Assembly: GCA_044892505.1 (NCBI GenBank)
Contig: CM097882.1
Span: forward strand, 118,296,001-118,360,000
DNA length: 64,000 nucleotides
DNA from: Schmidtea nova
Taxonomy: Eukaryota
Direction of reading: 5' to 3'
A program made the position numbers and the translations under genes. Position 1 is the stretch's first letter. Every line of letters starts with the position of its first letter. Positions 4,901-52,150 of this stretch are shown one piece after another. A model generated the notes under the pieces. It was not told the origin of the DNA, ran no database searches, and saw only the letters and a program-made list of their open reading frames with translations.

Positions 4901-6582
4901 CTGTACAAGTGCTAGCTTATGCTGATGATATAGCTCTTATCGCGACGAATACATCTGACTTACAGACTTTGGTGGACGTCGCTATCAGTACTGCTAATAA
5001 AATCGGATTTGAATATCGTCCTGAAAAATGCGCATATATTCAATATCCAAAGGTTGAAACTGTAAGTGAAATTGCTGTCAACAAAGAATACATAAAAAAG
5101 ATTACGACAAATGAATTTTACCAATACTTGGGTGTACCAATAGGTGAGAATAATGATCAAAGTCCCTACGAAATCGTCAGCAAAGTCATTGAGGACACAA
5201 AAAAGATTGCTAATTCTGATCTTCATGGCTGGCAAAAACTTAAGGCTTATAAAATTTTTTTACATTCTCGACTAATTTTCCCATTTAGAACTAGGGAAAT
5301 AAAAACCAGTTCTTTAGCTGACCCCAGTAAAAATTCTAGAATAAATGTTAATAATACTAGTCTGCTGAGAAGCCATCTAAGAAAGATATTAAACTTACCG
5401 AATCATTCTGAGATTAGTTATTTTTACAATGCAACTGAAACTGGTGGAGCTGGTTGCATTGATCTACTTGACGAGTACCACACACAGACGATTGTCTACT
5501 TTTATCGTTTGTTAACATCACCCTGTGAATACTCGAAAAAGATAAATAGTTTTTCACTCTTGTCTGTAACAAGTCCAAGACTTGGAATTAAAAATCCAAC
5601 TCTTCGGCAAAGTTTAGAATGGGTCAATGGGAAAGAGAGTAAACAAAATCACAGTGGTAGTAAAACTCGCTTTTACCGATTACGAACATCGATAGCTTAC
5701 TTTGCCAGAAATCACAACATTAAACTATCATTTGAAACTGTCAACGAAAATCCATCAATTCGTATTACTACAACATCAACTGGCACGCGCATTTTATTAC
5801 CAACGTTAAGAAAGGCGTTGTCAAAAATACTGCATTCTGCAATACAAGTTTCTTATCTGGAAAAATGGGAAAGTAGTAATCATAGTAATCTTCTCGTGTC
5901 AGCAATTAAACTCTGTCCGCTTGTAAATAAACTTATTTTCCGATCCGATTTGACAGAATTCGAATGGAGATTTGTTCATCGTGCACGAACCAACACATTG
6001 TCAACATTCGCCAAACCACATAAAACTGGCGAGAATCGTCTGTGTCGAAGGTGTAAATCTGAGGATGAAACGATACTTCACGTTCTACAAAAATGTAAAA
6101 TCAATCAATCTTTAGCTACAAATAGACACAATGCTTGTATAGATAAAATCAAAAATGAACTTAAAAATCCAAATTTACTTGTTGTCGTCGATCATAAATG
6201 TTCCCTTGTACAGAATTCGACTGAACGCGTTGACTTTCTAATAACAAATACAGAAAAGAAAACCATACTTTTAGTAGACATGAAATGTCCAATTGATTCT
6301 GTTTCGAACTTTGAAAAGATTGACAAATTGAATTTGGGAAAATACGAAAAGCTGAGATCTGAAATACAAGAAGTTAAACCAGACTTTAAGGTTGAACTGT
6401 TTACCTGTATAATTGGCTCTTTGGGATCATTTGAACCTAAAACAATTGACTTGTTATTAAATATGGGGGTCCAGGAGAAAAGAATAAAGAGTCTTTTGAA
6501 AGATTGTGCAATTAGTAATATTGCACATTCAGCTAAAATTTGGTACTTTCATACCAATGGCTTCCTACCAAACTTTGTGTAA
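1981..6582 (+). CDS. Ulp1-like protease (x3) - reverse transcriptase - zinc knuckle - RLE endonuclease polyprotein
   Basis: CPLNINNSHW/FIDP/QKNNFDCG (Ulp1 H-D-C); SPGLD, LIPKP, WRPIAL, LDIKDAFGSV, GVKQGCPIS, YADD, YQYLG (RT); CRRC..ETILHVLQKC, RHN, RVDFLI..LVDMKCP, K..KY (RLE). In frame with ORF1; no ATG at its start. Confidence 0.92.
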   Translation, partial: RCVPASAQSSAIPSNETDAESTINNNYLNFDDRDPEMWFSDNDIDWYLEQNIDNPLHGYIKCFVVNILCSDMHQDIVRIPQTIINAETVFCPLNINNSHWILFVYSKKYLSSYFIDPIYANRHKPINKQMALRINLKLNKFFKLNITVTHQPHVHFEYQKNNFDCGPFTCAYAVIISKDWTSFPVGFIEQIRKDVHLYQKQLQISKPKSLGGANLKMDMSKINIKKALAKKRVVNNNTIITKILNTQKPCVSSIICKYYQNNTAITVLSAELTLNLIAQNKSFIADNVTFKQFKGVDHIIAVIPKFNDWCLFIYSNTLENSLMFDFSYRNIDDRLIEIGEKMTEYLNKFCLGRNIEFLANHRISHPTFFSYDDQLFASSFIVLFEKLVFRKILENDKIYDSLSTIKNQTCIEITPSLSSINGKISEKIISDYFLNLNLSNNFILLNKTMCAAISDDCTQYLRDFLNIECMMKANVIFAIISPPKVHDLLMIIDYNTDEHYFLSPVINEVNIITEVYCHKLFLKINEIRESTGRAIKTRHCPHDVKGSGLFSKILFCAFMRNYAQDRPLVNINLHEIANLINVLVPIVDKNDNEMEKRRQKLKLVNSLKLNLKQRVEKINRLLDTLKNSSVDEIISCILSNIPRLENLNANHTRSPYLGNKPLKSKKLKSSTEFLTNMKQTVYRILGENFESVAPSFQEIISNFTHPDAFPASWESILKFTKISNVMLVLDPMTPAEIRTNLEKTENTSPGLDNVCYKDLLLFDPDCKLLAFLFNKIIQLEIIPTSWKSFKTILIPKPDKNGQYHKVSSWRPIALLSVIYKVFASVLANRLSTWIRNNSLLHVGQKGGSEYEGCIEHNSILSAIIEHSKYSKSSPVTIAWLDIKDAFGSVPHDYMWTLLRHMNVGENFIKILKLFYTDTSSFYCCNKMQTPDIAIKKGVKQGCPISMILFSIAINPVLEAIKLSNITPFMIGTSPVQVLAYADDIALIATNTSDLQTLVDVAISTANKIGFEYRPEKCAYIQYPKVETVSEIAVNKEYIKKITTNEFYQYLGVPIGENNDQSPYEIVSKVIEDTKKIANSDLHGWQKLKAYKIFLHSRLIFPFRTREIKTSSLADPSKNSRINVNNTSLLRSHLRKILNLPNHSEISYFYNATETGGAGCIDLLDEYHTQTIVYFYRLLTSPCEYSKKINSFSLLSVTSPRLGIKNPTLRQSLEWVNGKESKQNHSGSKTRFYRLRTSIAYFARNHNIKLSFETVNENPSIRITTTSTGTRILLPTLRKALSKILHSAIQVSYLEKWESSNHSNLLVSAIKLCPLVNKLIFRSDLTEFEWRFVHRARTNTLSTFAKPHKTGENRLCRRCKSEDETILHVLQKCKINQSLATNRHNACIDKIKNELKNPNLLVVVDHKCSLVQNSTERVDFLITNTEKKTILLVDMKCPIDSVSNFEKIDKLNLGKYEKLRSEIQEVKPDFKVELFTCIIGSLGSFEPKTIDLLLNMGVQEKRIKSLLKDCAISNIAHSAKIWYFHTNGFLPNFV

Positions 6583-6934: not shown

Positions 6935-8187
6935 ATTTCTAATTGTGAGACCCCAGTTTTAACTCTCAAGGTTGAATAATTTTTTCTTTGGCCGTTTTTA
7001 TGAAAATTTTGTTAAGGAATCGGATTCAGCGTATTGAATTTGATATAAATAGAAATTTTGGTTAAAATCTCACAAGTATTAGTCGAGAAAATCAATTAAA
7101 ATTTTTTTATATGTGAGAGGCCCAGGTTCAACTCCCACTTTGGACTAATTTTTTTTTTCTATTTTTTGTAACAAATTCGGATTCAGCATATTGAATTTGA
7201 TATAAATAGAAATTTTGGTTCAAATCTGACAAGTATTAGTCGAGAAAAATCATTTAAAATTTTTTTATATGTGAGAGGCCCAGGTTCAACTCTCACTTTG
7301 GACTCATTTTTTTCCTATTTTTTGTAACAAATTCGGATTCAGCATATTGAATTTGATATGTATACAAGTTTTCATAAAAATCGGACCATAATTGACTAAT
7401 ATAGAAATAAAGATAAAGTAATTAAAAAATAAATTTGATTAATTTAAATAAAATTATCAAATACTACTGATAAAGTAGTTAGTAAACAGATTGTATAAAC
7501 TTGTATATTTTTATATAAAGACCATTCCGGATTATTTTTTTACCATTAAGATAGTTGATTACATATTTTCTAAATAATGGCATGAATTAAGAATAAAAAT
7601 ATATGTTATATCTTTAAACTTTTATGAACTTCATGAAAGCATTACGAATCTGAATCCTGATGAGAAATCTTGCATTTATATAACTTGAAAACTATATAAT
7701 TATAATACTAATATAGATTTTCGATAATTTAATGGATCGCAGTTGAGCGCAGCGGAGCGCAGTGGGCGGTTGGCGGTTGGTGGTTGGCGGTTGGTGGTTG
7801 GTGGTTGGTGGTTGGTGGTTGGCGGATGGCGGATGGTGGATGGTGGATGGTGGATGGTGGTCGGCGGCGGGCGGTCGGCGGGTAGTGATTACCTGATGGT
7901 GTGTTGGTCACTAAGTGTGCCAGTTACTACCCATAAGTGTGCTGGTCAATAAGCATGGCGGGCACGCGCGGATGATGCAATGGACAATAAGCGTGCCGGA
8001 CACGTGCGGATGATACAAAAAACTCTAAAAGCAGTAGTTGCCATTGGCAACACGTGCCATAAGTGTGTCTTTGCACAAGAGTGCTGGTCAAGTACGAGTG
8101 ATGTAATGGTCAAGTGTCCGGTGTTATGTAACTTTAAAAAATTTAAGGGGGGGGGGGGTACTGTATCTGACGGGGACACATCCTACT
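6935..8187 (-). mobile_element. Polinton/Maverick-type terminal inverted repeat (copy A), facing the next element
   Basis: Near-identical inverted copy of 8193-9431; ends ...GGACACATCCTACT (reverse AGTAGG...); AG/AGT-repeat termini and long TIRs are Polinton hallmarks. Confidence 0.8.
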
Positions 8188-8192
8188 ATAAT

Positions 8193-9431
8193 AGTAGTAG
8201 TAGTAGGATGTGTCCCCGTCAGATACAGTACCCCCCCCCCTTAAATTTTTTAAAGTTACATAACACCGGACATTTGAACATTACATCACTCGTACGTGAC
8301 CAGCGCACTTGTGCAAAGACACACTTATGGCACGTGTTGCCAATGGCAACTACTACTTTTAGAAATATTTTGCATCATCCGCACGTTCCCGGCACAATTA
8401 CTGACCATTGCATCATCCGCGCGTGCCCGACATGCTTATTGACCAGCACACTTATGGGTAGTAACCGGCACACTTAGTGACCGACACACCATCAGGTAAT
8501 CACTACCCGCCAACCGCCAACGGCCATCCGCCATCCTGCCAACCGCCAACCGCCATCCGCCATCTGCCATCTGCCAACCGCCAACCGCCATCCGCCAACC
8601 GCCCACTGCGCTCCGCTGCGCTCAACTGCGATCCATTAAATTATCGAAAATCTAGATTAGTAATATAATTATATAGTTTTCAAGTTATATAAATGCAAGA
8701 TTTCTCATCAGGATTCAGATTCGTAATGCTTTCATGAAGTCCATAAAAGTTTAAAGATATAACATATATTTTTATTCTTAATTCATGCCATTATTTAGAA
8801 AATATGTAATCAACTATCTTAATGGTAAAAAAATAATCCGGAATGGTCTTTATATAAAAATATACAAATTTATACAATCTGTTTACTAACTACTTTATCA
8901 GTAGTATTTGATAATTTTATTTAAATTAATCAAATTTATTTTTTAATTAATTTATCTTTATTTCTATATTAGTCAATTATGGTCCGATTTTTATGAAAAC
9001 ATGTATACATATCAAATTCAATATACTGAATCCGAATTTATTACAAAAAATAGAAAAAAATTAGTCCAAAGTGGGAGTTGAACCTAGGCCTCTCACATAT
9101 GAAAAAGATTTTAAATTATTTTCTCGACTAATACTTGTCAGATTTGAACCAAAATTTCTGTTTACATCAAATTCAATACGCTGAATCCGAATTTGTTACA
9201 AAAAATAGGAAAAAAAATTAGTCCAAAGTGGGAGTTGAACCTGGGCCTCTCACATATAAAAAAATTTTAAATTATTTTCTCGACTAATACTTGTCAGATT
9301 TTAACCAAAATTTCTATTTATATCAAATTCAATACGCTGAATCCGATTCCTTAACAAAGTTTTCATAAAAAACGTCAAAGAAAAAATTATTCAACCTTGA
9401 GAGTTAAAACTGGGGTCTCACAATTAGAAAT
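8193..9431 (+). repeat. Left TIR of the palindromic element
   Basis: Homology with copy A ends at 9431; contains C10 tract, CCGCCA-type 7-mer array, ~157-bp tandem units. Confidence 0.85.
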
Positions 9432-9736
9432 CCATAGCCTTTCCAACTAAGCTACATTCCACACTTTTAATAAACAAAATTTTAACATATATTTGATTTT
9501 TCTNNNNNNNNNNNNNNNNNNNNNNNNNNNNNNNNNNNNNNNNNNNNNNNNNNNNNNNNNNNNNNNNNNNNNNNNNNNNNNNNNNNNNNNNNNNNNNNNN
9601 NNNNNNNNNNNNNNNNNNNNNNNNNNNNNNNNNNNNNNNNNNGACACAAAATAAAAAAAAAGACATTTTCAAATAACAAAATTTATTTCAATAACAATTT
9701 TCATTCTGGAAATATCGACATTAAGAACTAGTCATC

Positions 9737-10108
9737 TCAGTCGTTCAATGTATTTACTCCTAAATAATGCCCGAATGCAAAACTTTCATTTTTACCCACC
9801 CACTGACGCTTATCATCGTTGTTACTTAAAGCAATTTTAGTATTCTTAAAAGTATACAATTGATGATTTTGCTTCCCAATTCGAGTTTGAGGAACAGAAA
9901 AGATTTGATTATTATTGTAGCAATCAAGATAAGAAAGATGTTTTATCTCAGTTCCTTCTAAATATACTCCCTTCGCTTTATTACTTACAGATTCACCCAA
10001 AAGACTGTAGCACTTCGGACTTAAGAAAACCCATTCATTGGATCCAAGTCCAAATTTGCCAATGACTGAGTCAGGATTTCTTGAATACAATGGATGTTCA
10101 GGAATAAC
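9737..10108 (-). pseudogene. Protein-primed family B DNA polymerase, C-terminal remnant (copy 1)
   Basis: EHPLYS..VIGKF, LSPKCY, KAKGV, HQLYT...KIALSNNDDKR, AFGHY match the Polinton pPolB C-terminus; upstream part decayed. Confidence 0.8.
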
Positions 10109-11283
10109 CTATATAGTTTTAATAATAACAATAGTAATATTAATACTTGAAACCAATCAAAATGAAACTTGACACTTAAAAAAGTCAAATTTCTTTTTTA
10201 AAAAACTTGATTTAGAAATTTTTTTTCCATTCTTCATCCATACCAGATTTGGTAAAACAATATGATATAAGTAACTGAATTTGTAGTGATTAGTTGACAA
10301 CTAGTTAAAAAGTTTCAAAATCTATATATATTGCACAAAACCCTTATTAGCGCAATAATTAACAAGTTTTGAACCTGAAGCATGAAAATCAATCCAAATT
10401 AGTTAAGTTATCAAAATATTTTAAATATTTCTGTTATTATATATTTATTATAGAAAGGATGTTTCAAATTTATTTTTTAATTAATTTATCTTTATTTCTA
10501 TATTAGTCAATTATGGTCCGATTTTTATCAAAACATGTATACATATCAAATTCAATATGCTGAATCCGAATTTATTACAAAAAATAGGAAAAAAAATAGT
10601 CCAAAGTGGGAGTTGAACCTGGGCCTCTCACATATAAAAAAATTTTAAATGATTTTTCTCGACTAATACTTGTTTGATTTGAACCAAAATTTCTATTTAT
10701 ATCAAATTCAATATGCTGAATCCGAATTTGATACAAAAAATAGAAAAAAAAATTAGTCCAAAGTGGGAGTTGAACCTGGGCCTCTCACATATAAAAAAAT
10801 TTTAATTATTTTCTCGACTAATACTTGTCAGATTTTAACCAAAATTTCTATTTATATCAAATTCAATACGCTGAATCCGATTCCTTAACAAAGTTTTCAT
10901 AAAAAACGTCAAAGAAAAAATTATTCAACCTTGAGAGTTAAAACTGGGGTCTCACAATTAGAAATCCATAGCCTTTCCAACTAAGCTACATTCCACACTT
11001 TTAATAAACAAAATTTTAACATATATTTGATTTTTCTNNNNNNNNNNNNNNNNNNNNNNNNNNNNNNNNNNNNNNNNNNNNNNNNNNNNNNNNNNNNNNN
11101 NNNNNNNNNNNNNNNNNNNNNNNNNNNNNNNNNNNNNNNNNNNNNNNNNNNNNNNNNNNNNNNNNNNNNNNNNNNNNNNNNNNNNNNNGACACAAAATAA
11201 AAAAAAAAGACATTTTCAAATAACAAAATTTATTTCAATAACAATTTTCATTCTGGAAATATCGACATTAAGAACTAGTCATC

Positions 11284-11655
11284 TCAGTCGTTCAATGTAT
11301 TTACTCCTAAATAATGCCCGAATGCAAAACTTTCATTTTTACCCACCCACTGACGCTTATCATCGTTGTTACTTAAAGCAATTTTAGTATTCTTAAAAGT
11401 ATACAATTGATGATTTTGCTTCCCAATTCGAGTTTGAGGAACAGAAAAGATTTGATTATTATTGTAGCAATCAAGATAAGAAAGATGTTTTATCTCAGTT
11501 CCTTCTAAATATACTCCCTTCGCTTTATTACTTACAGATTCACCCAAAAGACTGTAGCACTTCGGACTTAAGAAAACCCATTCATTGGATCCAAGTCCAA
11601 ATTTGCCAATGACTGAGTCAGGATTTCTTGAATACAATGGATGTTCAGGAATAAC
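11284..11655 (-). pseudogene. pPolB C-terminal remnant (copy 2)
   Basis: Identical translation to copy 1. Confidence 0.8.
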
Positions 11656-14600
11656 CTATATAGTTTTAATAATAACAATAGTAATATTAATACTTGAAAC
11701 CAATCAAAATGAAACTTGACACTTAAAAAAGTCAAATTTCTTTTTTAAAAAACTTGATTTAGAAATTTTTTTTCCATTCTTCATCCATACCAGATTTGGT
11801 AAAACAATATGATATAAGTAACTGAATTTGTAGTGATTAGTTGACAACTAGTTAAAAAGTTTCAAAATCTATATATATTGCACAAAACCCTTATTAGCGC
11901 AATAATTAACAAGTTTTGAACCTGAAGCATGAAAATCAATCCAAATTAGTTAAGTTATCAAAATATTTTAAATATTTCTGTTATTATATATTTATTATAG
12001 AAAAGACATGTTAGTTGATATCAGTTGATAATAGTTAAAAATTAACTAATAATACGTGGTAATCATTATTTTTACAAGTTCTCAATGAAAGTAGTAAACA
12101 ATGATTTAATTATAATTGTAAGAATACTAAGAGAAATTCCTAAGAAAAGTGACTCTCAAAAGTAATTTAAATATCATCTTCAAAAATTTATTAACAAAAA
12201 TTTAGTTTCAAAACTTTTACTCACAAAAATTTAGTTTCAAAAATTTATTCACAGAATTTAGATTCAAAAAATTATTCACAAATTTTAGTTTTAAATTTAT
12301 CCACAGTATTTAGATTAAAATCTATTTTTTACCCAGTTTTTGTTCACTAACCAGTTAGTAACCCATTAATTATTGATAAAATATTTACTAATTTGATTTA
12401 TATTTAAAGTTAATTTCGTAATATTTTAAATTAATATATATCATTTGAATACAATTTTAAAAATTACTTTGACTTAAATTAACTTTTGAAACTTAGAATA
12501 AATTTTAGTAAACAAATCTAAATTTTTTAAATTAAAATTGATTTTTTTTCCAAATTGAATTTTGTCGGGAAAATATAGTTAGTTACACAATCAATTTTAT
12601 ACTAATTAATTAAAACTTATTTAAAATTGATGTCTTGAAGATTGGCTACATTAATGAGTTCCAAAATCATTTCAAAATGATACCAGGATATTTATGAATT
12701 TATTTGCAATTATTTATTTTACTAAAAGCAAAAATTATTATCATTTATTTGAAAATATGCGGATTTTTAAATTGAAACTTAAATAAAATTTTAATTGTTG
12801 GCTAATTAAAAGTAATTTTTATAGGTTTAAAATTAATCTAAAATTAAAATAATAATCGATTGATCAATGTACAAAATTTTATATTACTTAGTCAGCAACT
12901 TTAACAATTGAATAATCTTTTAAATAAATTAGACAACTGAATTTTTAAATAAGACGAAAAGAAAAAGAATAATAGAAATTTCTATATGCTTTAATTTCAA
13001 AATTGTAATGCTTAATTTTCAAATATTTTGGTTAATAAAGTATTTATTTTGAACCAAAACTAGTAGTTAGAATACTAAAGTTTACTTTATTATAACATTT
13101 AAAATGAAAAACAAATCAATTTACTCATTATCAATTAGTTACTAATTATTAATAAATTCGATAATAATTTAATACACGTTAAAATTAATTTAAATAGATC
13201 TTTTTAAGAATTGATTTCATTAGATTTCAAAAATTTTTAGAATAAATTTTAAAATATTTTTAATAAAAGAACTAAATGCAATAAACTCGATTGATTGACA
13301 ACCATTGACAACAAACTCATTTGTGCAATAAGATGTTTTGTCAGCGTATTTATTATCACTAGGTTATGAAACCATTAATGAATGCTGTTTTTATGTATTG
13401 ATTGAAGAAAACATGTAATAAAAACTAAAATCAACCAATTAAATTATCCAAATTCGCTCCAGTGTGTTCATTATTTGTATAACATGTGGTATTTTTATAC
13501 TGATATTTTCCTATCGATTTGAATACAATTACTATACATTGCTACAAAAATCACTAAATTTGGGTATTAAACTGATATAACTCAAATTGAGGCTCCCTTT
13601 TAAAATTACTTGCACCTTTTTAATTGATATTCATCATAAAACCTATTTAATTATCGATAATGTATTATACCTCCATATTTCTTAGTATTCTCAAAAGTAT
13701 AACACAATTTATCACGTAATTATATAAAATCAGTATTGATAAATTTTAAATAAAATAGCTACAAACTTCTTAGTTCAATAAAACTTACTCAAATATGTCG
13801 TTAACTTTGAAATAACTCTTAAGAAACCGCATAAAATCACCAAATTAAACGTGAAAATTTTATCAAATCTTATTACTCTTGATATTATTAATATCTTTAC
13901 TAAATTATCACATGATCCATCATTGAAAATTACATTATTATTCTGCTAAATTAAAATACCAGTAAATTAATTAAATTGTTAATAAAAATTGTTAATAACA
14001 AAACACAATTTATGAAATAGCTACAAACTTCTTAGTTCAATAAAACTTACTCAAATATGTCATTAATTCTGAAATAACACTTAAGAAACTGCATAAAATC
14101 CCCAATTAAAACGTGAAAATTTTATCAAATCTTATTAATCTTGATATTATTAATATCTTTACTAAATTATCACATGATCCATCATTGAAAATTACATTAT
14201 TATTCTGGTATATATTAAAATATCATTAAATTAATTGTTAATAAAAAGCTATGTAGTCATATATATTTTAAAATCCCATAAAAATGACCAAATATCATTC
14301 AAATCATGACAAAAAGCTATTTTGTCATATATAATTTAAAATCACATTAAAATCACAACAAATCATTCAAAACTCAATATTCAAGTCATTATAACTGATA
14401 CTGACTATGCTTAGTGGCTTTGAGTTTCAAATTTTACCATAAAGTAATCAATAAATAATCCTAAAATTTGATATAATCTGAATTAAAAGTTTCGACCATT
14501 TAATTAACAAAGAATATTGAATTAACACAAAATTATTTACGTTAAGACATTTCAAATTATCAACATTACTTGATATAAATCCTTAACTTCATTGAATTTC

Positions 14601-16025
14601 CATAAAATCAATTAATTACATAAATTACCTGTTAAAATTTATTTTACATCTAAATTCTTTCAATTATCTTCATAAATTTTCCACAATTCACTTAAAAATT
14701 GTAATGAAATTACTTTGGAAGTTATTTGAATTTTTATTAGTTTGCTATAAAATTATTATAATCACTGTAATAATCGAAAATATTTATAATCACTGTAATA
14801 ATCTAAATTTTAGTCATAACCTTTGATTAAATTGACATTAATTTCAATCTTAAATATATTTTAAATTTAATGAAATCAACAATTTGCATAAAATATTAAT
14901 TGAGAGAAAATAAGTTGGAAATTTTAAAAAGAAATTTGAAATACAATCAATGTGTATTTCTAAAATATTAATTATCTTTGAATTTAATTAGAATAAATTG
15001 TATTTAATTTTAGCAAATATTTAGTTTATTTCGAAAAAAGTATTTGAATTATTGCCAAATAAAAAGTCATGGTAACTAAATATAATTATAATATTATGAT
15101 TTTAATTTAGAATTAATTAATTTGCATGATGATTTCTGAATTTAATTTTAATGTAGAATTAAATACTGGTCATTTATATTTTGTGAAGAAATTCCTATTA
15201 CTAATTTTAAAAAATCAAAGTTATTTTAAAAAGTTTCAAATAATACAAATTAAAATCTATATAAATAGTATATAAGTGAATATACAATATGAATCTTTTA
15301 CAGGTAAAAACCATCACAAAAGAGGTTCTGCTACCAAAGGTTCTGCTAGAAAGGTTCTGCTACGTGATAAATTTAATGAAAATGTATCAATAATAGTATA
15401 TAAGTGAATATACAATATGAATCTTTTACAGGTAAAAACCATCACAAAAGAGGTTCTGCTACCAAAGGTTCTGTTAGAAAGGTTCTGATACTAAGGATAT
15501 ATTAGAAAAGTTCTGATACTGAATATAATTGTTAATAATGAATTTTACCAAAATATTTATTGATTTTTCATTTTAAATATTTTCAGTGAATTATTAATAT
15601 TAATAATTTTTATTATTACCACGTAATAATTTTGTAACATTAAATCTGTTTCGATTGTTTTTTATGATATTTATAAAAGTTGATATAATATGAAAAATTT
15701 ATTCACAAAGGGCAATTTATGTATGTGATGCAGTTATCTGTTTGTGTATAGTAACTTTTCATTGAATTGTGTCAGTTTTTATCATAATTCGATGCATTAC
15801 ATTATTTTTTGATATAATCTGTCTATTAAAAGATTTTGCATAAATAATTAATTATCATATATTTTGCATAAATAATTAATTATCATATTAAAATAAAGTG
15901 TGTATCTGCACACAAAAATATCAATAAATAAAAATTAATAAAAATGTTAAACGAAATCTGATTGGTCAATTTAAATTATGAAAACATATATATAAATTGA
16001 TTAAAAATTACAGATTTCATTAAAA

Positions 16026-16566
16026 ATGTATCAACTTAAAAGTAAGTTTAAATAATTTTAAATGATTATTTTTAATATTTTATTCTAGAATCTTCGAACA
16101 AAAAGATGTTGAAACAAGAAGTAATGAAAATTATTCTTGAAGAAAATTCTATTTCGGCATCAAATTTGGTTAGGAATCCTGCAGTTCAATTTCTACAATA
16201 CTCGATGGAATATTTAAAATTTCCAATAATTTATTCATTTAAAGTATATATTTATTTAATTAAAATAAATTTCTAATAATTATTTTATAGGAACCTGTTA
16301 CATTGAAACAATGCATGTATAATCTTCAAGTGGGGAAAATTGGAGATATTGATAGACGAAATATTTCAGAAATTTTGTTAGCAATCAACAAAGAAATACA
16401 ATTTAATGAAGCTTTTACGTATATGAATTGCATTAAAGATTGTAATTTGAAAAATCCCGATGAAAATTCAATATATCAAATTAAGATAATGATTCAAGGC
16501 TTCAAAGAATCTAATGATGTTGTCAAACCTGTTTGGAAAATTATAGAAACAAATATATGTGAATAA
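16026..16566 (+). CDS. Spliced 148-aa hypothetical protein (exons 16026-16041, 16089-16243, 16291-16566)
   Basis: Two 47-nt GT-AG introns join into a stop-free frame MYQLKKSSNKK...KFPIIYSFK|EPVTLKQC...VKPVWKIIETNICE; homologous to 33804-34220. Confidence 0.7.
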
Positions 16567-17262
16567 AATTTATTTATCAAATCTTTTCATTTCATTTCAT
16601 TTTATTTTATTTTATTGTTTGTTTTGGTTAATTTAAATTTTTAATAAAAATTATTTTGTGTGTTAAATTTATAACCAAATATTTAAAATCGATTAATTTT
16701 TTATTAAAATAAAAATAATTAATTTTTTATTTTATTTTATTTTTTGTTTTGGTTAATTTAAATTTTTAATAACAATTATTTTTTGTGTTAAATTTATTAC
16801 CAAATATTTAAAATCGATTAGTTTTTTATTAAATAAAAATAATTAATTTTATTATCATAATTAATCTAAATTGATTTTGTTTTAATAATTGATTATACGT
16901 TTAAAATTCAAATTCAAATTAATTTTCTTTAATATTTCCCGGCAACAATAATTAATTCGGAATTTGATATATATTCGAATATATATCAAATTCCGAATTA
17001 ATTATTGTTGCCGGGAAATATTAAAGAAAATTAATTTTAATGTTTATTTTAAACGTATAATCAATTAATAAAACAAAATCAATTTAGAATAATTATGATA
17101 ATAAAATTAATTATTTTTATTTTAATAAAAAACTAATCGATTTTAAATATTTGGTAATAAATTTAACACAAAAAATAATTGTTATTAAAAATTTAAATTA
17201 ACCAAAACAAAAAAATAAAATAAAATAAATAAAATGAAAAGATAAGATTTGATAAATAAATT

Positions 17263-17803
17263 TTATTCACATATATTTGTTTCTATAATTTTCCAAACAG
17301 GTTTGACAACATCATTAGATTCTTTGAAGCCTTGAATCATTATCTTAATTTGATATATTGAATTTTCATCGGGATTTTTCAAATTACAATCTTTAATGCA
17401 ATTCATATACGTAAAAGCTTCATTAAATTGTATTTCTTTGTTGATTGCTAACAAAATTTCTGAAATATTTCGTCTATCAATATCTCCAATTTTCCCCACT
17501 TGAAGATTATACATGCATTGTTTCAATGTAACAGGTTCCTATAAAATAATTATTAGAAATTTATTTTAATTAAATAAATATATACTTTAAATGAATAAAT
17601 TATTGGAAATTTTAAATATTCCATCGAGTATTGTAGAAATTGAACTGCAGGATTCCTAACCAAATTTGATGCCGAAATAGAATTTTCTTCAAGAATAATT
17701 TTCATTACTTCTTGTTTCAACATCTTTTTGTTCGAAGATTCTAGAATAAAATATTAAAAATAATCATTTAAAATTATTTAAACTTACTTTTAAGTTGATA
17801 CAT
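17263..17803 (-). CDS. Mirror copy of the spliced 148-aa gene
   Basis: Reverse complement of 16026-16566; last exon translation identical in ORF track. Confidence 0.7.
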
Positions 17804-20800
17804 TTTTAATGAAATCTGTAATTTTTAATCAATTTATATATATGTTTTCATAATTTAAATTGACCAATCAGATTTCGTTTAACATTTTTATTAATTTTTA
17901 TTTATTGATATTTTTGTGTGCAGATACACACTTTATTTTAATATGATAATTAATTATTTATGCAAAATATATGATAATTAATTATTTATGCAAAATCTTT
18001 TAATAGACAGATTATATCAAAAAATAATGTAATGCATCGAATTATGATAAAAACTGACACAATTCAATGAAAAGTTACTATACACAAACAGATAACTGCA
18101 TCACATACATAAATTGCCCTTTGTGAATAAATTTTTCATATTATATCAACTTTTATAAATATCATAAAAAACAATCGAAACAGATTTAATGTTACAAAAT
18201 TATTACGTGGTAATAATAAAAATTATTAATATTAATAATTCACTGAAAATATTTAAAATGAAAAATCAATAAATATTTTGGTAAAATTCATTATTAACAA
18301 TTATATTCAGTATCAGAACTTTTCTAATATATCCTTAGTATCAGAACCTTTCTAACAGAACCTTTGGTAGCAGAACCTCTTTTGTGATGGTTTTTACCTG
18401 TAAAAGATTCATATTGTATATTCACTTATATACTATTATTGATACATTTTCATTAAATTTATCACGTAGCAGAACCTTTCTAGCAGAACCTTTGGTAGCA
18501 GAACCTCTTTTGTGATGGTTTTTACCTGTAAAAGATTCATATTGTATATTCACTTATATACTATTTATATAGATTTTAATTTGTATTATTTGAAACTTTT
18601 TAAAATAACTTTGATTTTTTAAAATTAGTAATAGGAATTTCTTCACAAAATATAAATGACCAGTATTTAATTCTACATTAAAATTAAATTCAGAAATCAT
18701 CATGCAAATTAATTAATTCTAAATTAAAATCATAATATTATAATTATATTTAGTTACCATGACTTTTTATTTGGCAATAATTCAAATACTTTTTTCGAAA
18801 TAAACTAAATATTTGCTAAAATTAAATACAATTTATTCTAATTAAATTCAAAGATAATTAATATTTTAGAAATACACATTGATTGTATTTCAAATTTCTT
18901 TTTAAAATTTCCAACTTATTTTCTCTCAATAAATATTTTATGCAAATTGTTGATTTCATTAAATTTAAAATATATTTAAGATTGAAATTAATGTCAATTT
19001 AATCAAAGGTTATGACTAAAATTTAGATTATTACAGTGATTATAAATATTTTCGATTATTACAGTGATTATAATAATTTTATAGCAAACTAATAAAAATT
19101 CAAATAACTTCCAAAGTAATTTCATTACAATTTTTAAGTGAATTGTGGAAAATTTATGAAGATAATTGAAAGAATTTAGATGTAAAATAAATTTTAACAG
19201 GTAATTTATGTAATTAATTGATTTTATGGAAATTCAATGAAGTTAAGGATTTATATCAAGTAATGTTGATAATTTGAAATGTCTTAACGTAAATAATTTT
19301 GTGTTAATTCAATATTCTTTGTTAATTAAATGGTCGAAACTTTTAATTCAGATTATATCAAATTTTAGGATTATTTATTGATTACTTTATGGTAAAATTT
19401 GAAACTCAAAGCCACTAAGCATAGTCAGTATCAGTTATAATGACTTGAATATTGAGTTTTGAATGATTTGTTGTGATTTTAATGTGATTTTAAATTATAT
19501 ATGACAAAATAGCTTTTTGTCATGATTTGAATGATATTTGGTCATTTTTATGGGATTTTAAAATATATATGACTACATAGCTTTTTATTAACAATTAATT
19601 TAATGATTTTTTAATATATACCAGAATAATAATGTAATTTTCAATGATGGATCATGTGATAATTTAGTAAAGATATTAATAATATCAAGATTAATAAGAT
19701 TTGATAAAATTTTCACGTTTTAATTGGGGATTTTATGCAGTTTCTTAAGTGTTATTTCAGAATTAATGACATATTTGAGTAAGTTTTATTGAACTAAGAA
19801 GTTTGTAGCTATTTCATAAATTGTGTTTTGTTATTAACAATTTTTATTAACAATTTAATTAATTTACTGGTATTTTAATTTAGCAGAATAATAATGTAAT
19901 TTTCAATGATGGATCATGTGATAATTTAGTAAAGATATTAATAATATCAAGAGTAATAAGATTTGATAAAATTTTCACGTTTAATTTGGTGATTTTATGC
20001 GGTTTCTTAAGAGTTATTTCAAAGTTAACGACATATTTGAGTAAGTTTTATTGAACTAAGAAGTTTGTAGCTATTTTATTTAAAATTTATCAATACTGAT
20101 TTTATATAATTACGTGATAAATTGTGTTATACTTTTGAGAATACTAAGAAATATGGAGGTATAATACATTATCGATAATTAAATAGGTTTTATGATGAAT
20201 ATCAATTAAAAAGGTGCAAGTAATTTTAAAAGGGAGCCTCAATTTGAGTTATATCAGTTTAATACCGAAATTTAGTGATTTTTGTAGCAATGTATAGTAA
20301 TTGTATTCAAATCGATAGGAAAATATCAGTATAAAAATACCACATGTTATACAAATAATGAACACACTGGAGCGAATTTGGATAATTTAATTGGTTGATT
20401 TTAGTTTTTATTACATGTTTTCTTCAATCAATACATAAAAACAGCATTCATTAATGGTTTCATAACCTAGTGATAATAAATACGCTGACAAAACATCTTA
20501 TTGCACAAATGAGTTTGTTGTCAATGGTTGTCAATCAATCGAGTTTATTGCATTTAGTTCTTTTATTAAAAATATTTTAAAATTTATTCTAAAAATTTTT
20601 GAAATCTAATGAAATCAATTCTTAAAAAGATCTATTTAAATTAATTTTAACGTGTATTAAATTATTATCGAATTTATTAATAATTAGTAACTAATTGATA
20701 ATGAGTAAATTGATTTGTTTTTCATTTTAAATGTTATAATAAAGTAAACTTTAGTATTCTAACTACTAGTTTTGGTTCAAAATAAATACTTTATTAACCA

Positions 20801-22173
20801 AAATATTTGAAAATTAAGCATTACAATTTTGAAATTAAAGCATATAGAAATTTCTATTATTCTTTTTCTTTTCGTCTTATTTAAAAATTCAGTTGTCTAA
20901 TTTATTTAAAAGATTATTCAATTGTTAAAGTTGCTGACTAAGTAATATAAAATTTTGTACATTGATCAATCGATTATTATTTTAATTTTAGATTAATTTT
21001 AAACCTATAAAAATTACTTTTAATTAGCCAACAATTAAAATTTTATTTAAGTTTCAATTTAAAAATCCGCATATTTTCAAATAAATGATAATAATTTTTG
21101 CTTTTAGTAAAATAAATAATTGCAAATAAATTCATAAATATCCTGGTATCATTTTGAAATGATTTTGGAACTCATTAATGTAGCCAATCTTCAAGACATC
21201 AATTTTAAATAAGTTTTAATTAATTAGTATAAAATTGATTGTGTAACTAACTATATTTTCCCGACAAAATTCAATTTGGAAAAAAAATCAATTTTAATTT
21301 AAAAAATTTAGATTTGTTTACTAAAATTTATTCTAAGTTTCAAAAGTTAATTTAAGTCAAAGTAATTTTTAAAATTGTATTCAAATGATATATATTAATT
21401 TAAAATATTACGAAATTAACTTTAAATATAAATCAAATTAGTATATATTTTATCAATAATTAATGGGTTACTAACTGGTTAGTGAACAAAAACTGGGTAA
21501 AAAATAGATTTTAATCTAAATACTGTGGATAAATTTAAAACTAAAATTTGTGAATAATTTTTTGAATCTAAATTCTGTGAATAAATTTTTGAAACTAAAT
21601 TTTTGTGAGTAAAAGTTTTGAAACTAAATTTTTGTTAATAAATTTTTGAAGATGATATTTAAATTACTTTTGAGAGTCACTTTTCTTAGGAATTTCTCTT
21701 AGTATTCTTACAATTATAATTAAATCATTGTTTACTACTTTCATTGAGAACTTGTAAAAATAATGATTACCACGTATTATTAGTTAATTTTTAACTATTA
21801 TCAACTGATATCAACTAACATGTCTTTTCTATAATAAATATATAATAACAGAAATATTTAAAATATTTTGATAACTTAACTAATTTGGATTGATTTTCAT
21901 GCTTCAGGTTCAAAACTTGTTAATTATTGCGCTAATAAGGGTTTTGTGCAATATATATAGATTTTGAAACTTTTTAACTAGTTGTCAACTAATCACTACA
22001 AATTCAGTTACTTATATCATATTGTTTTACCAAATCTGGTATGGATGAAGAATGGAAAAAAAATTTCTAAATCAAGTTTTTTAAAAAAGAAATTTGACTT
22101 TTTTAAGTGTCAAGTTTCATTTTGATTGGTTTCAAGTATTAATATTACTATTGTTATTATTAAAACTATATAG

Positions 22174-22545
22174 GTTATTCCTGAACATCCATTGTATTCA
22201 AGAAATCCTGACTCAGTCATTGGCAAATTTGGACTTGGATCCAATGAATGGGTTTTCTTAAGTCCGAAGTGCTACAGTCTTTTGGGTGAATCTGTAAGTA
22301 ATAAAGCGAAGGGAGTATATTTAGAAGGAACTGAGATAAAACATCTTTCTTATCTTGATTGCTACAATAATAATCAAATCTTTTCTGTTCCTCAAACTCG
22401 AATTGGGAAGCAAAATCATCAATTGTATACTTTTAAGAATACTAAAATTGCTTTAAGTAACAACGATGATAAGCGTCAGTGGGTGGGTAAAAATGAAAGT
22501 TTTGCATTCGGGCATTATTTAGGAGTAAATACATTGAACGACTGA
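22174..22545 (+). pseudogene. pPolB C-terminal remnant (copy 3, right arm)
   Basis: Identical translation; frame opens after TATATAG at 22173 (VIPEHPLYS...). Confidence 0.8.
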
Positions 22546-22865
22546 GATGACTAGTTCTTAATGTCGATATTTCCAGAATGAAAATTGTTATTGAAATAAA
22601 TTTTGTTATTTGAAAATGTCTTTTTTTTTATTTTGTGTCNNNNNNNNNNNNNNNNNNNNNNNNNNNNNNNNNNNNNNNNNNNNNNNNNNNNNNNNNNNNN
22701 NNNNNNNNNNNNNNNNNNNNNNNNNNNNNNNNNNNNNNNNNNNNNNNNNNNNNNNNNNNNNNNNNNNNNNNNNNNNNNNNNNNNNNNNNNNNNAGAAAAA
22801 TCAAATATATGTTAAAATTTTGTTTATTAAAAGTGTGGAATGTAGCTTAGTTGGAAAGGCTATGG

Positions 22866-24306
22866 ATTTCTAATTGTGAGACCCCAGTTTTAACTCTCAA
22901 GGTTGAATAATTTTTTCTTTGACGTTTTTTATGAAAACTTTGTTAAGGAATCGGATTCAGCGTATTGAATTTGATATAAATAGAAATTTTGGTTAAAATC
23001 TGACAAGTATTAGTCGAGAAAATAATTTAAAATTTTTTTATATGTGAGAGGCCCAGGTTCAACTCCCACTTTGGACTAATTTTTTTTCCTATTTTTTGTA
23101 ACAAATTCGGATTCAGCGTATTGAATTTGATGTAAACAGAAATTTTGGTTCAAATCTGACAAGTATTAGTCGAGAAAATAATTTAAAATCTTTTTCATAT
23201 GTGAGAGGCCTAGGTTCAACTCCCACTTTGGACTAATTTTTTTCTATTTTTTGTAATAAATTCGGATTCAGTATATTGAATTTGATATGTATACATGTTT
23301 TCATAAAAATCGGACCATAATTGACTAATATAGAAATAAAGATAAATTAATTAAAAAATAAATTTGATTAATTTAAATAAAATTATCAAATACTACTGAT
23401 AAAGTAGTTAGTAAACAGATTGTATAAATTTGTATATTTTTATATAAAGACCATTCCGGATTATTTTTTTACCATTAAGATAGTTGATTACATATTTTCT
23501 AAATAATGGCATGAATTAAGAATAAAAATATATGTTATATCTTTAAACTTTTATGGACTTCATGAAAGCATTACGAATCTGAATCCTGATGAGAAATCTT
23601 GCATTTATATAACTTGAAAACTATATAATTATATTACTAATCTAGATTTTCGATAATTTAATGGATCGCAGTTGAGCGCAGCGGAGCGCAGTGGGCGGTT
23701 GGCGGATGGCATGAATTAAGAATAAAAATATATGTTATATCTTTAAACTTTTATGGACTTCATGAAAGCATTACGAATCTGAATCCTGATGAGAAATCTT
23801 GCATTTATATAACTTGAAAACTATATAATTATATTGCTAATCTAGATTTTCGATAATTTAATGGATCGCAGTTGAGCGCACCGGAGCGCAGTGGGCGGTT
23901 GGCGGATGGCGGTTGGCGGTTGGCAGATGGCAGATGGCGGATGGCGGTTGGCGGTCGGCAGGATGGCGGATGGCCGTTGGCGGTTGGCGGGTAGTGATTA
24001 CCTGATGGTGTGTCGGTCACTAAGTGTGCCGGTTACTACCCATAAGTGTGCTGGTCAATAAGCATGTCGGGCACGCGCGGATGATGCAATGGTCAGTAAT
24101 TGTGCCGGGAACGTGCGGATGATGCAAAATATTTCTAAAAGTAGTAGTTGCCATTGGCAACACGTGCCATAAGTGTGTCTTTGCACAAGTGCGCTGGTCA
24201 CGTACGAGTGATGTAATGTTCAAATGTCCGGTGTTATGTAACTTTAAAAAATTTAAGGGGGGGGGGGGGGGGGGGTACTGTATCTGACGGGGACACATCC
24301 TACTAC

Positions 24307-24307
<1 letters not shown>
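22866..24307 (-). repeat. Right TIR of the palindromic element, with a private ~200-bp tandem duplication (~23509-23907)
   Basis: Reverse complement of 8193-9431 plus duplicated GGCATGAATTAAG...GGCGGAT block; G19 tract. Confidence 0.85.
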
Positions 24308-24350
<43 letters not shown>

Positions 24351-24360
24351 TATTATTATT
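24308..24360. repeat. (TAT)n microsatellite flanking the element terminus
   Basis: Direct reading; one TAC interruption. Confidence 0.95.
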
Positions 24361-27090: not shown

Positions 27091-27319
27091 AAAAACATTA
27101 GAAACACATTCGACGAAATTTTTTTTTCAAATCACCTTTTCTTTTATAGTTATTATAAAACTATAAAGGAAGGTGAGATCTTTTGACCGAACACAGTAGG
27201 TCATATACTTTTAATAAACTCAAGTTTGTTTTCACAATCAAATATCACAAAAAAATAAGTAATTTAAAGAGCACAAAAGCTAATCTTGTGATTAACCCAA
27301 TCCCAAACTTTTTATCAAC

Positions 27320-28611
27320 GAAAACGGTTCTGTACTAGCATGGTTAAAACTAGACAAATTGACATTATCGTTGAGCGGTATAACCTCACCAAGACTAATA
27401 TGCTCGCAAATTATAACGGCACTCCCAAGCAATATACGCAAAACATATGCCGATCAAATAGACAAGATCTTAAATAGTGACAACCCATTCGAAAAACTGT
27501 GCAGCATATTAACAAATATTAATATACCAAATAATAAACAAATGCAAGAATTTTGCCCCAATAAATATATACCAAATAATTTCCCAAAACCACTAAAACA
27601 GAATTCGGAGTACGTCCAAACAAAATTAGCAAACTTTGACCTAAACGAACAGGGATCATACCAAACATTAGCTACTAAAGATAACGAAACTGAAAATAAA
27701 ATGGTGGCAAGCATGGTCCATAAAATAAATGCAGGAGCTTACCCCAGTATTAACAGCACACATGACAACAAAAATAAAATACCTAACCATAAACAAGATG
27801 AGAATGAAAACGAAAAAACAGAATTTAACGAAACAAATAAAATCCTAAATAACTTAATAAGGCAACTTGACAAAATAGCAACTGAAAATAAAAGGTTCAA
27901 ACTTGAACTAAATGAAATTAAAGAAAAAAACCTAAAACAAAACTACTATCCAAATCAAACATTATATAGGCTCAACAGGCCAAAGCCAAACTCAAGAAAT
28001 CAACATCAAAACTTTCAGAACAATAAAGACAAAGAAACTGGAAACAGAAAGAAAATCTGGAAACCAGAAATCAGACTAGCAAATCAAGAATTTTGTTGCT
28101 TCCATTACAAATTTGGAGAAAAGGCATTCAAATGCACAAAACCGTACAGATACAACAAAATAAACTCAGAAAAATTGAAAAGTTTGCCAGTAGTTGCTCC
28201 TACATTTGACGAAATAAACACAGAAAAACTGAAAACGCTACCAGTAGTTGCACCTACATTCGACAATAAACATTACGCTTTTACAGTATGTTCAAATAAA
28301 ATAGAATTCCTAGTTGACACAAGTTCAGTGATATCACTACTACTACATATTTTGTACAAAAATGCAAAAAGATCAAAACAAACTACTTACTGCAGCCAAT
28401 GGATCTAACATAAAACTTTTGGTGAACACGATATAACCCTAACAATAAAAAACAAAACTTACAAATGTACATTCCCGATAGCCAAAGTTCAACAAGCAAT
28501 AATAGGTGCAGATTTTCTATCAAAATACAATTTTCTGGTCGACTACAAAAACAAACGACTTATAGAAAATTCAAACGCAACAAATTTACAATACAACATG
28601 ATATGTGAAAC
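27320..28611 (+). pseudogene. gag: Gypsy gag + aspartic protease (frameshifted)
   Basis: AW..GITS..IITALP..D.I..PFEKL gag N-terminus; CCFHYKFGEKAFKC knuckle; FLVDTSS and IGADFL protease motifs. Confidence 0.75.
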
Positions 28612-28856
28612 TAGGGTTTGCAAATTACCCGAAATCTTAATACCCGGGTAATCGAGTATTATTTTGTTTAAATACCCGGGTACTCGGGTACTCGAAAAAA
28701 AATTATTTTATGAATAAAAACAAAGTAAAGAACTAATTTTTAATTAATATAAACAAAAACAAAACAAATTCATTTATTCAACAAAAAATAAAGAAAAAAT
28801 TAATAGTGAAATTTCACAATACATAAGTATAAATACAAAAATAACTACAAAAATAA

Positions 28857-29110
28857 CTAATTATTTTTATTAAAATAATATTTTAAAAATACCAATGCGT
28901 TAACAGTATCTGTGCCTAATCTATTGCGTACTTTATTAATAGTATTACTAGCAACTGAAAATACCTTCTCAGATGATGTTGATGTTGGGCTTATTGACAA
29001 TAGAGCTTCATATAAATTGTTCATATTGCTACTAAAACTATGATTCAATATGTACAGTTTGATTAAAATACAACTTTTTTTAACTTATTAGACAAATCCA
29101 TTGAATATTT
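28857..29110 (-). pseudogene. hAT transposase C-terminal dimerisation domain
   Basis: LYEALLSISPTSTSSEKVFS...RNRLGTDTVNALVFLK. Confidence 0.8.
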
Positions 29111-29949
29111 CCTTGAATCAATTTATAGTTTTATACACTTCTACGGAGGAAATAATGTTTTATCATTTTACAACCATTTTGTATCATCACAAAGTATCCA
29201 AAATCATTGCTTAATAAATACAGGAATTGTCAATATCTTTACTATTTTGTATTAAATTTACTCTGAAAATAATTAAATTATGTAAAAATGATTAATATTT
29301 AAGGAAAATGAAAGAAAATATACATGTTCTTGAATATCACAAGTGAATGACACAAGAAATACAAGTGTAATTAAGTTTCAATACAAATGCAATCAAGTTG
29401 CAATACAAGTGCATGACACATGCATAACATGACAGTACAAGTGTTTCAAACATGCGTCACAGTGATTTATATCAACAATTCAGACTTGAAATATGATAAG
29501 TAGTCGAACGTTTCTATCAGAACCCTAGTAGCAGAACCTTGCTAACAGAACACTAGTAGCAGAACATCTTTTGTGATGGTTTTTATCTGCAAAAGCTTAT
29601 TACTCGAACATTTATTTAATTATTACTGTTACAATTCAACTTCATTCAACATTAATTGTTCTAATATTCTCACCCATTAATATTTTCTACATTGCTTTTA
29701 AAATATCTATTGGATTTTCTCACTTTAAAGTAGAACCTACTGTAATGTTTGAAAGATTTATTTTCACTCATAATTCATTATTGTTATATTTTCATCAATT
29801 TTATTCAGTAGCAGAACATTGCTAACAGACCATTGCTAGCAGAACCTTTAGTAACAGAACATCTTTTGTGATGGTTTTTATGTGCAAAAGTTTATTATTC
29901 ACACATAATAAAATAACAATCATTAGCATATAAGCTTCGATCAATGTAA

Positions 29950-32150: not shown

Positions 32151-32550
32151 TTAATAGTGTGTTTACGAACCTGAAAATATTTCCAGCTTTGAGATATATA
32201 AAATATAACCACATGTGTGTTAGTATATTTGCAAGTGGTAAAGTAGTTGTATTAGGTTTAAAAACTAGGGATTATTTAAATATAGTTGATAATATTATTA
32301 TCGATATAAAATAAATTATCGAAGATAAAGCCTTTGTTGATTTTATAATAACATGTGACTCATGATTGCAATAAATCTGCAATATTAATGCACTATTCTG
32401 ATTGGTCCAGTGTGTATATCGATAATAAATACATGTTATGCATACTCGAATCTGATTGGTTCAGTGTGTAATATTTTGTACATGCCTTGTGTTTCTATCG
32501 TATATATATACAATTAACATTTTGCTATCATTTATATTCACAATCACAAA

Positions 32551-33243: not shown

Positions 33244-33803
33244 ACATTATAAATGTTATATGTTTTTATTTATTTGTGTATTTTCATTTTATGTAGACAC
33301 ATTTTATGTATTCACATTTTATTATTTAATAAATCTTTTATTATTGTTATTTTAGTTTTTTCTGTTTCAGTTTCTTATTTTGTTAATGAGTTATTTATTC
33401 GGTTTTTAAATAAATTTTTTAAATAATTTTAAAATAATTTTTAATTAGTTTTTTGAAATGAAATAGGTTTACTAGTAATTTTTATTAAGTTTTAAATAAG
33501 TTTTATTTAAATGAATTATGTTTAATAGTAAGTTTTATAAATAAAGACAATTTCAATAATAAATACATATGCATCAATTAATTACAACAAAGTCATGTAT
33601 TCCAAAATCAGTTTCAACAAAATAAACATACATGTATAATTAACACACGAAAAAGACATGCAACAAAGACATACCTGCAACAACGACATGTATGAAGACA
33701 TGCATAACATGTGCAGTTAGAATGCGTCATTTTGATTGGGCAAAGGTATTACTCATCATTATAAATACAAAGACATTTAGTAGAGATTGTCACAATTTCA
33801 AAA

Positions 33804-52143: not shown

Positions 52144-52150
52144 ACTGTAA

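Follow-up and report, generated by a model that had tools for sequence, protein, structure and literature searches.

Polintons (Mavericks) most commonly end in the motif (AGT)2//(ACT)2 (PMC8097293), and have terminal inverted repeats (TIRs) of 100-1,500 bp and target-site duplications (TSDs) of 5-8 bp (10.1101/2023.08.22.554363). In C. elegans, polymerase-end Polinton remnants that have a TIR and no integrase are found at 10 loci, and local inversions are linked to Polintons (10.1101/2024.01.15.575659). In yeast chromosomes, inverted duplications form around inverted repeats that were already there, and homology-mediated joins at repeated elements complete them (PMC10622511, PMC7467729), and self-complementary molecules built from one end of a linear replicon are described as template-switch products of phi29 (PMC4974454) and as snap-back genomes of adeno-associated virus (AAV; PMC8235507). 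Here we describe a palindromic element of 16,115 bp at positions 8193-24307 of a 64,000-nucleotide stretch of Schmidtea nova DNA (GCA_044892505.1, contig CM097882.1, positions 118,296,001 to 118,360,000; the whole stretch is called the window, and all coordinates refer to it). It consists of two copies, facing opposite ways, of the polymerase-side end of one Polinton-type element, and it works like a foldback or snap-back product.

The palindrome shares with the C. elegans remnants the (AGT)2//(ACT)2 ends, a kilobase-scale TIR, a polymerase remnant beside the TIR, clustered TIRs and local inversion. It differs from them in being wholly one inverted repeat, in having no integrase, capsid, ATPase or protease frame and no TSD, and in keeping an intron-bearing gene for a probable SSB (a protein binding single-stranded DNA) in both arms. 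Like the yeast foldback inversions, it has an imperfect inverted repeat at its centre, arms that appear freshly copied and a candidate second junction in a repeated element; unlike them, its central repeat measures about 290 bp per arm rather than 3-15 bp, the mismatches would have been kept and the event would be confined to a mobile element. With the phi29 and AAV molecules it has in common self-complementarity derived from one linear-replicon end, retention of both origins and a presumptive dependence on a helper, whereas the palindrome is chromosomal, and any replication, packaging or mobility of it would be hypothetical. A first-pass annotation of this DNA had proposed an undescribed system, a claim we do not maintain because snap-back and foldback products are already described for phi29, AAV and yeast chromosomes. 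A hairpin plasmid was described by Kikuchi in 1985, as cited in PMC4443254; it reportedly had its origin in pGKL1, a protein-primed yeast plasmid. Among the papers listed, our literature search showed no report of a palindromic or folded-back Polinton, a weak negative given that the original Polinton descriptions, Repbase, most subscription journals and supplements lay outside its coverage. The available portions of three Polinton papers (10.1101/2023.08.22.554363, PMC8097293, 10.1101/2024.01.15.575659) do not mention palindromes, and those in the available portion of 10.64898/2026.07.28.741278 are short terminal ones.

Results

Self-BLAST of the window aligned 11189-16730 with 22639-17098 in inverted orientation at 99.7% identity over 5,544 columns, and 8587-9503 with 23710-22794 at 100% over 917 columns. 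The axis lies at 16976|16977 with no spacer, within a perfect core with 61-bp arms (16916-17037); the runner-up perfect palindrome in the 64 kb has arms of only 11 bp. The inverted repeat spans the whole element, dividing it into a left arm of 8,784 bp and a right arm of 7,331 bp, and three short runs of N are located at equivalent positions of both arms. The Polinton/Maverick end motif is present at the element ends, the left terminus being (AGT)4 at 8193 and the right terminus (ACT)2 ending at 24307. The left TIR (8193-9431, + strand) begins with (AGT)4 and contains a C-tract and 7-bp and 156-bp repeats, and the right TIR (22866-24307, - strand) finishes with (ACT)2. Measured as the sequence common to the left end and a third TIR copy described below, TIR length is at least 1,239 bp (at least 1.24 kb), within the Polinton range. 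Both termini derive from one parent end and the sequence is self-complementary, as in a snap-back molecule; the hairpin folding score (z = -41.7) is trivial for any palindrome and was given no weight. Self-BLAST and the axis sequence thus confirmed the 16-kb spacerless palindrome of the first-pass annotation, whose arm order (TIR, protein-primed polymerase remnant, AT-rich DNA, 148-aa gene) also holds in both arms, and whose description as one half of a Polinton is borne out by a non-autonomous element made of one Polinton end twice. The "perfect axis" survived in part: there is no spacer, but only 61 bp per side are perfect and the next ~225 bp are 4% diverged. As a separate observation, the 156-bp TIR repeats (9009-9346 and copies) contain a word that we take to resemble a polymerase III B-box, followed by a T run. 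A transfer-RNA-like unit in these repeats was considered and rejected: ARAGORN made no call in them, Rfam gave nothing at E 5, and the folding z was -0.26.

Divergence between the arms is concentrated at the centre. Outside it, 5 of 6,683 bases are substituted between the arms, compared with 9 of 286 aligned bases between the two stop codons (16567-17262), or 9 of 225 when the perfect core is left out (Fisher P = 6e-11). When clusters were counted once and indels were included, the centre still differed from the arms (6/286 versus 12/6,883, P = 5e-5). The change occurs as a single step at 16586/17243, with 0-1 substitutions in each of 16 arm windows of 330 bp, and the diverged zone begins about 20 bases past the stop codon and its overlapping AATAAA. 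A 125-bp tandem pair (16600-16855, + strand) lies in this region; its copies are 4% apart, and the right side has the inner copy only. Because 9/286 bases differ in the centre against 5/6,683 in the arms, the simplest reading is that the very AT-rich centre (16586-17243) is an older, imperfect inverted repeat of ~290 bp per side, the putative foldback site, from which the arms would have been copied. We do not claim the 61-bp core as a separately repaired tip, the chance of zero substitutions there being 0.11.

The arms also differ in their repeat units and TIR alleles. The left arm carries two 1.55-kb units and the right arm one. Unit 1 (8930-10456, + strand), which comprises inner TIR and polymerase remnant, has the same readable sequence as the right arm (100% over 917 and 814 bases). 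Unit 2 (10464-12003, + strand) is contiguous with the interior, and the 7-nt junction between the units matches neither source exactly. Compared with both arms, unit 2 has 19 substitutions and two one-base indels, most of them in common with the third TIR and all within a patch of its 156-bp repeats (10529-10807, + strand) that represents a different TIR allele; among the 34 variable columns of the patch, 16 match the third TIR, 12 match the arms and 6 are private. Intra-array conversion was rejected as the source of the patch, its first repeat being nearer to the third TIR (6 differences) than to the arm repeats (8-12). The right arm has the alleles of the outer unit 1, not those of unit 2. 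Because it matches unit 1 while unit 2 adjoins the interior, the right arm would most simply be the left arm copied with one 1.55-kb unit skipped.

Near its end, the right arm contains a 200-bp tandem duplication with 5-bp microhomology (23506-23910, + strand), a candidate template-switch junction. The inner copy is the same as the left arm and the outer copy has 2 substitutions. Distal to the junction, 3 of 589 bases are substituted, compared with 4 of 6,294 further in (P = 0.017, at a boundary picked after the data had been seen); beyond it, the right-end C-tract is 9 bases longer and there are two fewer terminal triplets than at the left end. Because the distal differences, C-tract length and terminal repeat number all set this end apart, these data hint that the final 600 bp of the right arm came from another family member. 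The asymmetries reported in the first-pass annotation (1.55 kb and ~125 bp on the left, ~200 bp on the right) are all present. Its view of them as private duplications of each arm fared less well, as the 1.55-kb and 125-bp differences are more simply explained if the right arm lost one tandem unit. Its argument against a simple read foldback holds, with different TIR alleles in the two arms: folding of a single molecule predicts a faithful reverse copy that ignores the element ends, and this pattern is not seen because the TIR allele beside the interior differs, a 1.55-kb unit is missing and the arm stops at the terminus.

A scan against the right end revealed no TSD, that is, no 4-8-bp direct repeat for left ends at 8190-8202. 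All 9 direct-repeat hits of the scan use left ends 8188-8189, which are the third TIR's own end. This third TIR copy (6935-8187, - strand) belongs to the same family and lies head-to-head with the left end, separated from it by 5 bp (8188-8192) that do not repeat the right flank, a (TTA)17.7 microsatellite (24308-24360, + strand). It shows 1,157 matches and 68 substitutions in 1,225 aligned bases against 8188-9431 (self-inverted hit, 93%), and is older or from another family member. Together, the third and left TIRs make up a second palindrome (6935-9431; 2.5 kb, 93% identical, 5-bp spacer). Any of three origins would account for it: insertion beside an older copy, a junction within a concatemer, or a previous foldback. 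The duplicated tract ends to the base at the element terminus and takes in none of the flanking DNA, and there is no second copy of the 16-kb palindrome in the window.

The Polinton assignment is based on the termini together with a 123-aa frame beside each TIR. For this frame, 12 of 163 candidates proved to be relatives (best match 68% identity, E = 1.9e-42), 5 of them carrying a PF03175 (DNA_pol_B_2) domain, and it aligns with the final ~115 residues of polymerases of 1,150-1,370 aa, the upstream ~90% of the gene being absent. Homology search and tblastn located these C-terminal ~115 codons of a family B DNA polymerase of the protein-primed kind, with a five-residue in-frame gap, at 11284-11655 (- strand), with copies inside unit 1 (9737-10108, - strand; tblastn with P0001, E = 1e-48) and in the right arm (22174-22545, + strand). 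An intron-split polymerase gene upstream of the remnant was considered and dropped, as tblastn found no further polymerase piece in the window below E 0.1; a search of prokaryote genomes and phages with the remnant gave no match. The truncation is identical in both arms, and the parent would therefore have been defective already before the duplication. Between the remnant and the 148-aa gene lies an AT-rich interior (11656-16025, 20% GC) with old internal repeats and no coding sequence recognisable in frame and Pfam scans: the longest open frame in these 4.4 kb is 76 aa, and none of 36 frames of at least 30 aa matches Pfam. The interior contains a ~127-bp repeated module with 14-bp sub-repeats (15248-15520) that is 73-86% identical to a second element in the window at 29.5-30.6 kb (blastn E down to 6.5e-21). 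There is no retroviral-like integrase gene, the largest frame within the arms being the 123-aa one and 0/36 short frames matching Pfam, and no capsid, packaging ATPase or protease gene in the arm frames by a frame and Pfam scan that heavily decayed pieces would escape. The element thus derives from a Polinton and falls short of a complete one, with a polymerase gene reduced to a remnant and without integrase, capsid module or TSD. The first-pass annotation had recognised no replication, integration or capsid genes; integrase and capsid genes were likewise not found here, but the probable SSB would be a replication gene.

The 148-aa gene (16026-16566, + strand) has three predicted exons (16026-16041, 16089-16243 and 16291-16566) separated by two 47-nt GT-AG introns, and an AATAAA overlaps its stop codon. 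This model replaced a two-exon model of 137 aa once an additional 16-nt exon gave 148 aa. By arm comparison the mirror copy (17263-17803, - strand) is identical in sequence. An intronless 138-aa paralogue of this gene is located in the second element (33804-34220, + strand; BLASTP E = 5e-7), and the DNA downstream of it soon enters N. The paralogue has 38 relatives at E 0.001 or better. A profile of 37 relatives, which left out P0014 and whose columns were aligned with the window rows present, reached E = 1.8e-18 on exon 3 and 2.9e-4 on the exon-2 frame, with the next unrelated of 1,873 segments scoring 0.56. P0014 itself (1,225 aa) contains 15 stretches that match the middle of the paralogue, apparently a tandem array of a fragment, and its Pfam hits resemble repeat noise.

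Structure prediction points to the class of T7 gp2.5. A long helix after strand 2 is the hallmark of T7-type SSBs (PMC5686142), and the paralogue model (predicted local distance difference test score, pLDDT, 92) is an oligonucleotide/oligosaccharide-binding (OB) fold barrel in which helix 62-75 comes right after strand 55-58. The four best solved matches to this model were African swine fever virus (ASFV) CP312R, Enc34 SSB, a DUF2815 protein and T7 gp2.5 (Z 7.0-7.6, root-mean-square deviation (rmsd) 2.6-4.3, 99-130 residues aligned), none of which gets to Z 8, the level the structure tool calls unremarkable. A Foldseek search of the PDB with the paralogue model gave nothing that reached E 0.001 (T7 gp2.5 was rank 2 and Enc34 SSB rank 4); against viral models there were 28 matches at E 0.001 or better, mainly uncharacterised giant-virus proteins. 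The exon-3 model has the same fold more weakly (Z 6.2, rmsd 3.3, 90 residues aligned to DUF2815, tied with unrelated OB-folds) and no viral-model match at E 0.001 (best 0.013). Sequence searches were uninformative: Pfam assigned no family to the polymerase remnant, the exons or the paralogue; at E up to 1, no Pfam family was common to more than two of the 39 members of the alignment; a sequence-profile search of the PDB gave 3 weak unrelated matches (best E = 0.28); and word-seeded searches found 0 of 8 candidates related with the paralogue and, with the alignment, 6 of 1,552 candidates, without informative names. An acidic C-terminal tail is absent, both proteins stopping a few residues past the last strand. 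In short, the window proteins resemble T7-type SSBs (T7 gp2.5, Enc34 ORF6, DUF2815, ASFV CP312R and giant-virus relatives) in their OB-fold and the long helix after the second strand, and differ in being compact (138-148 aa), in lacking the tail, in their low identity (6-15%) and in having no Pfam match; binding is predicted. We conclude from these models that the 148-aa protein is probably a T7-gp2.5-type SSB. In phi29 an SSB is an accessory of strand-displacement replication (PMC4974454). Judged by its position, the gene would belong to the Polinton rather than being cargo; among the papers listed by our literature search none was on a Polinton SSB, and the available portions of PMC11161782 and PMC8502044 contain no passage on one.

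The second element (~29100-35940) splits a hAT transposase, with a zf-BED domain at 37121-37606 and what is presumably the remainder of the gene at 28857-29084. In addition to the SSB paralogue it contains three copies of the module common to the palindrome arms and a frame of 219 aa (32584-33243) that includes a repeat of six residues. Self-complementary repeats of the ATGAGTCATCG type are also present in it, and its right end has a C8/G9 run. No polymerase and no TIR shared with the palindrome were found in it, and its one 8-bp direct repeat (29107 and 35942) is about chance level by estimate. Left of the third TIR lies a non-LTR retroelement (LTR, long terminal repeat) with Ulp1 protease and reverse transcriptase (1-6582, + strand; frames of 659 and 1,533 aa with one in-frame stop between them), which we take to be NeSL/Utopia-like; Rfam revealed no RNA target near it, and it may be responsible for the cut in the third TIR at 6935. 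Decayed LTR-retrotransposon pieces are found at 27296-28651 and 38349-39347, with a reverse transcriptase at 38349-38675 and, we assume, a gag-like frame among them. A 344-bp direct repeat (49716-50059 and 53841-54184, 97%) encloses several frames of 110-195 aa (51085-53661) with no convincing Pfam match. Stop-interrupted frames at 55707-57928 (- strand), GC-rich against the background and without a Pfam match, are presumably DDE transposase-like; a 217-bp self-inverted repeat (57921-58137) adjoins them, and the sole ARAGORN call in the window (57183-57269), inside these frames, is probably spurious.

Discussion

The explanation we favour, at roughly even confidence, is a foldback at an old hairpin of an integrated Polinton that was defective beforehand, completed when synthesis switched onto the end of another copy. 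In this reconstruction, which extends to the order in which things happened, the direction in which copying ran, the second donor and a cellular setting, the parent would have been an integrated element comprising a TIR, the 3' tip of the polymerase gene, AT-rich filler and the SSB gene, with an imperfect AT-rich inverted repeat of ~290-bp arms just past the SSB stop codon. If the DNA broke, or the polymerase switched template, on this repeat's far side, the 3' end could have folded back and served as the primer for synthesis along the left arm; sequence outside the old repeat would then have been newly copied, and the old repeat would have retained its mismatches. One 1.55-kb tandem unit would have been skipped during copying. 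Near the end, synthesis would have switched, 200 bp out of register and at the 5-bp microhomology, onto the TIR of another family member, acquiring that donor's terminus and (TTA)n flank, and the parent's other half would have been lost. The absence of a TSD at the true ends supports a foldback in an integrated Polinton. Of the earlier proposal of a snap-back or foldback satellite mobilised in trans, the foldback/template-switch origin fits well, while mobilisation has against it the missing TSD and the single copy in the window.

Several points weigh against this explanation. The centre has 10% GC, below all 16 arm windows (16-29%), and several of its differences resemble slippage clusters; its divergence could likewise have been raised by a higher mutation rate, by later damage to a cruciform or by misreading of a hairpin in sequencing. 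The tips of hairpins tend to suffer damage and sequencing errors. The pre-existing central repeat is deduced from the present copy, and in yeast a short (11-bp) central repeat had its mismatches corrected, not kept (PMC10622511). The clean stop at a canonical terminus needs a second donor, and none was seen; the excess of substitutions distal to the 200-bp junction comes down to three. Finally, the same events could have occurred in a tube during whole-genome amplification, or in an assembler.

This last possibility, a foldback in amplification or sequencing, or an assembler that turned at the central repeat and exited via a near-identical TIR, is unlikely in our estimate, yet likelier than the other alternatives. 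In one data set, whole-genome amplification turned 40-50% of the reads palindromic, and it left an assembly with inverted duplications (PMC6218980); about 0.55-0.6% of nanopore genomic reads were foldbacks, whereas HiFi reads were virtually free of them (PMC12870357). The 99.9% identity of the arms, the lack of a TSD, the unrelated flanks, the N runs at equivalent arm positions and the homopolymer-length nature of several arm differences all suit an artefact. A single folded molecule, however, should have brought the unit 2 alleles and the 1.55-kb repeat into the right arm, where neither is found, and should have continued into the third TIR instead of stopping at the terminus. The out-of-register 200-bp junction is present in neither of the other TIR copies, and the differences at the centre would still require an older repeat or error.

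Rather doubtful is a snap-back satellite, in which foldback occurred during protein-primed replication of a free linear copy and the helper-replicated palindrome integrated as a unit. The right arm stops exactly at the canonical (ACT)2 terminus, as copying to a free end would, but end-to-end copying should also have erased the differences in C-tract, terminal repeat number and three bases that distinguish the ends. The 3' end of a gene precedes the axis, and subgenomic molecules of 1-8 kb arise in phi29 through template switching tied to convergent transcription (PMC4974454); with helpers, snap-back genomes of AAV are able to replicate (PMC8235507). An open SSB gene with canonical introns beside a polymerase remnant is also in keeping with such a satellite. 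Polintons, in contrast to this element, show TSDs of 5-8 bp, and the window holds one copy; later alteration of the left flank is possible, at the price of an extra assumption.

Improbable is an old palindrome whose symmetry was maintained by repeated copying or conversion between its arms, or one formed by inward growth of the TIRs until they joined, with the centre least overwritten. Terminal repeats of linear organelle DNA and plasmids do expand by conversion to more than 15 kb (PMC3673629), and the conversion-like patch in unit 2 fits this scheme, as does the divergence step at 16586/17243, although a gradient would be expected and one step was seen, with 0-1 substitutions in each of the 16 windows of 330 bp. 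Conversion cannot alone create a spacerless axis, and the large asymmetries (1.55 kb and 200 bp) persist. A host inverted duplication that incidentally included a Polinton remnant would suit the missing TSD and the repeat-dense region, and is highly improbable because the duplicated tract stops to the base at the element terminus and no flanking DNA is duplicated.

Independent of the palindrome, these analyses assign a probable SSB function to a family, as yet unnamed and outside all Pfam models, of at least 38 proteins, one member of which adjoins a Polinton polymerase remnant and carries predicted spliceosomal introns. If the palindrome is a repair product only, it is a clear, well-dated example of rearrangement of a Polinton remnant, and a 16-kb near-perfect palindrome that survives in a chromosome. 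It is quite doubtful that it was once a free, helper-dependent replicon, a Polinton satellite with two protein-priming ends, no enzymes of its own, two intact SSB genes and arms rebuilt from one another. Were that so, it would be a fossil defective-interfering genome and direct evidence, for an animal-type host, of free linear Polinton replication; by way of hairpin RNA it might in addition silence its family. Mu killer of maize is reportedly an inverted duplication that silences its transposon family, and Ac/Ds inverted duplications are said to initiate small interfering RNA silencing (10.1101/2020.01.07.897926). The palindrome resembles both in being an inverted duplication of one transposon end with a possible long read-through hairpin RNA; it differs from them in element class, and a poly(A) signal precedes the centre in both genes here. 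If more copies with their own TSDs were found, they would represent snap-back intermediates for a class characterised mainly in silico (10.1101/2023.08.22.554363) and would make its free-replicon stage testable.

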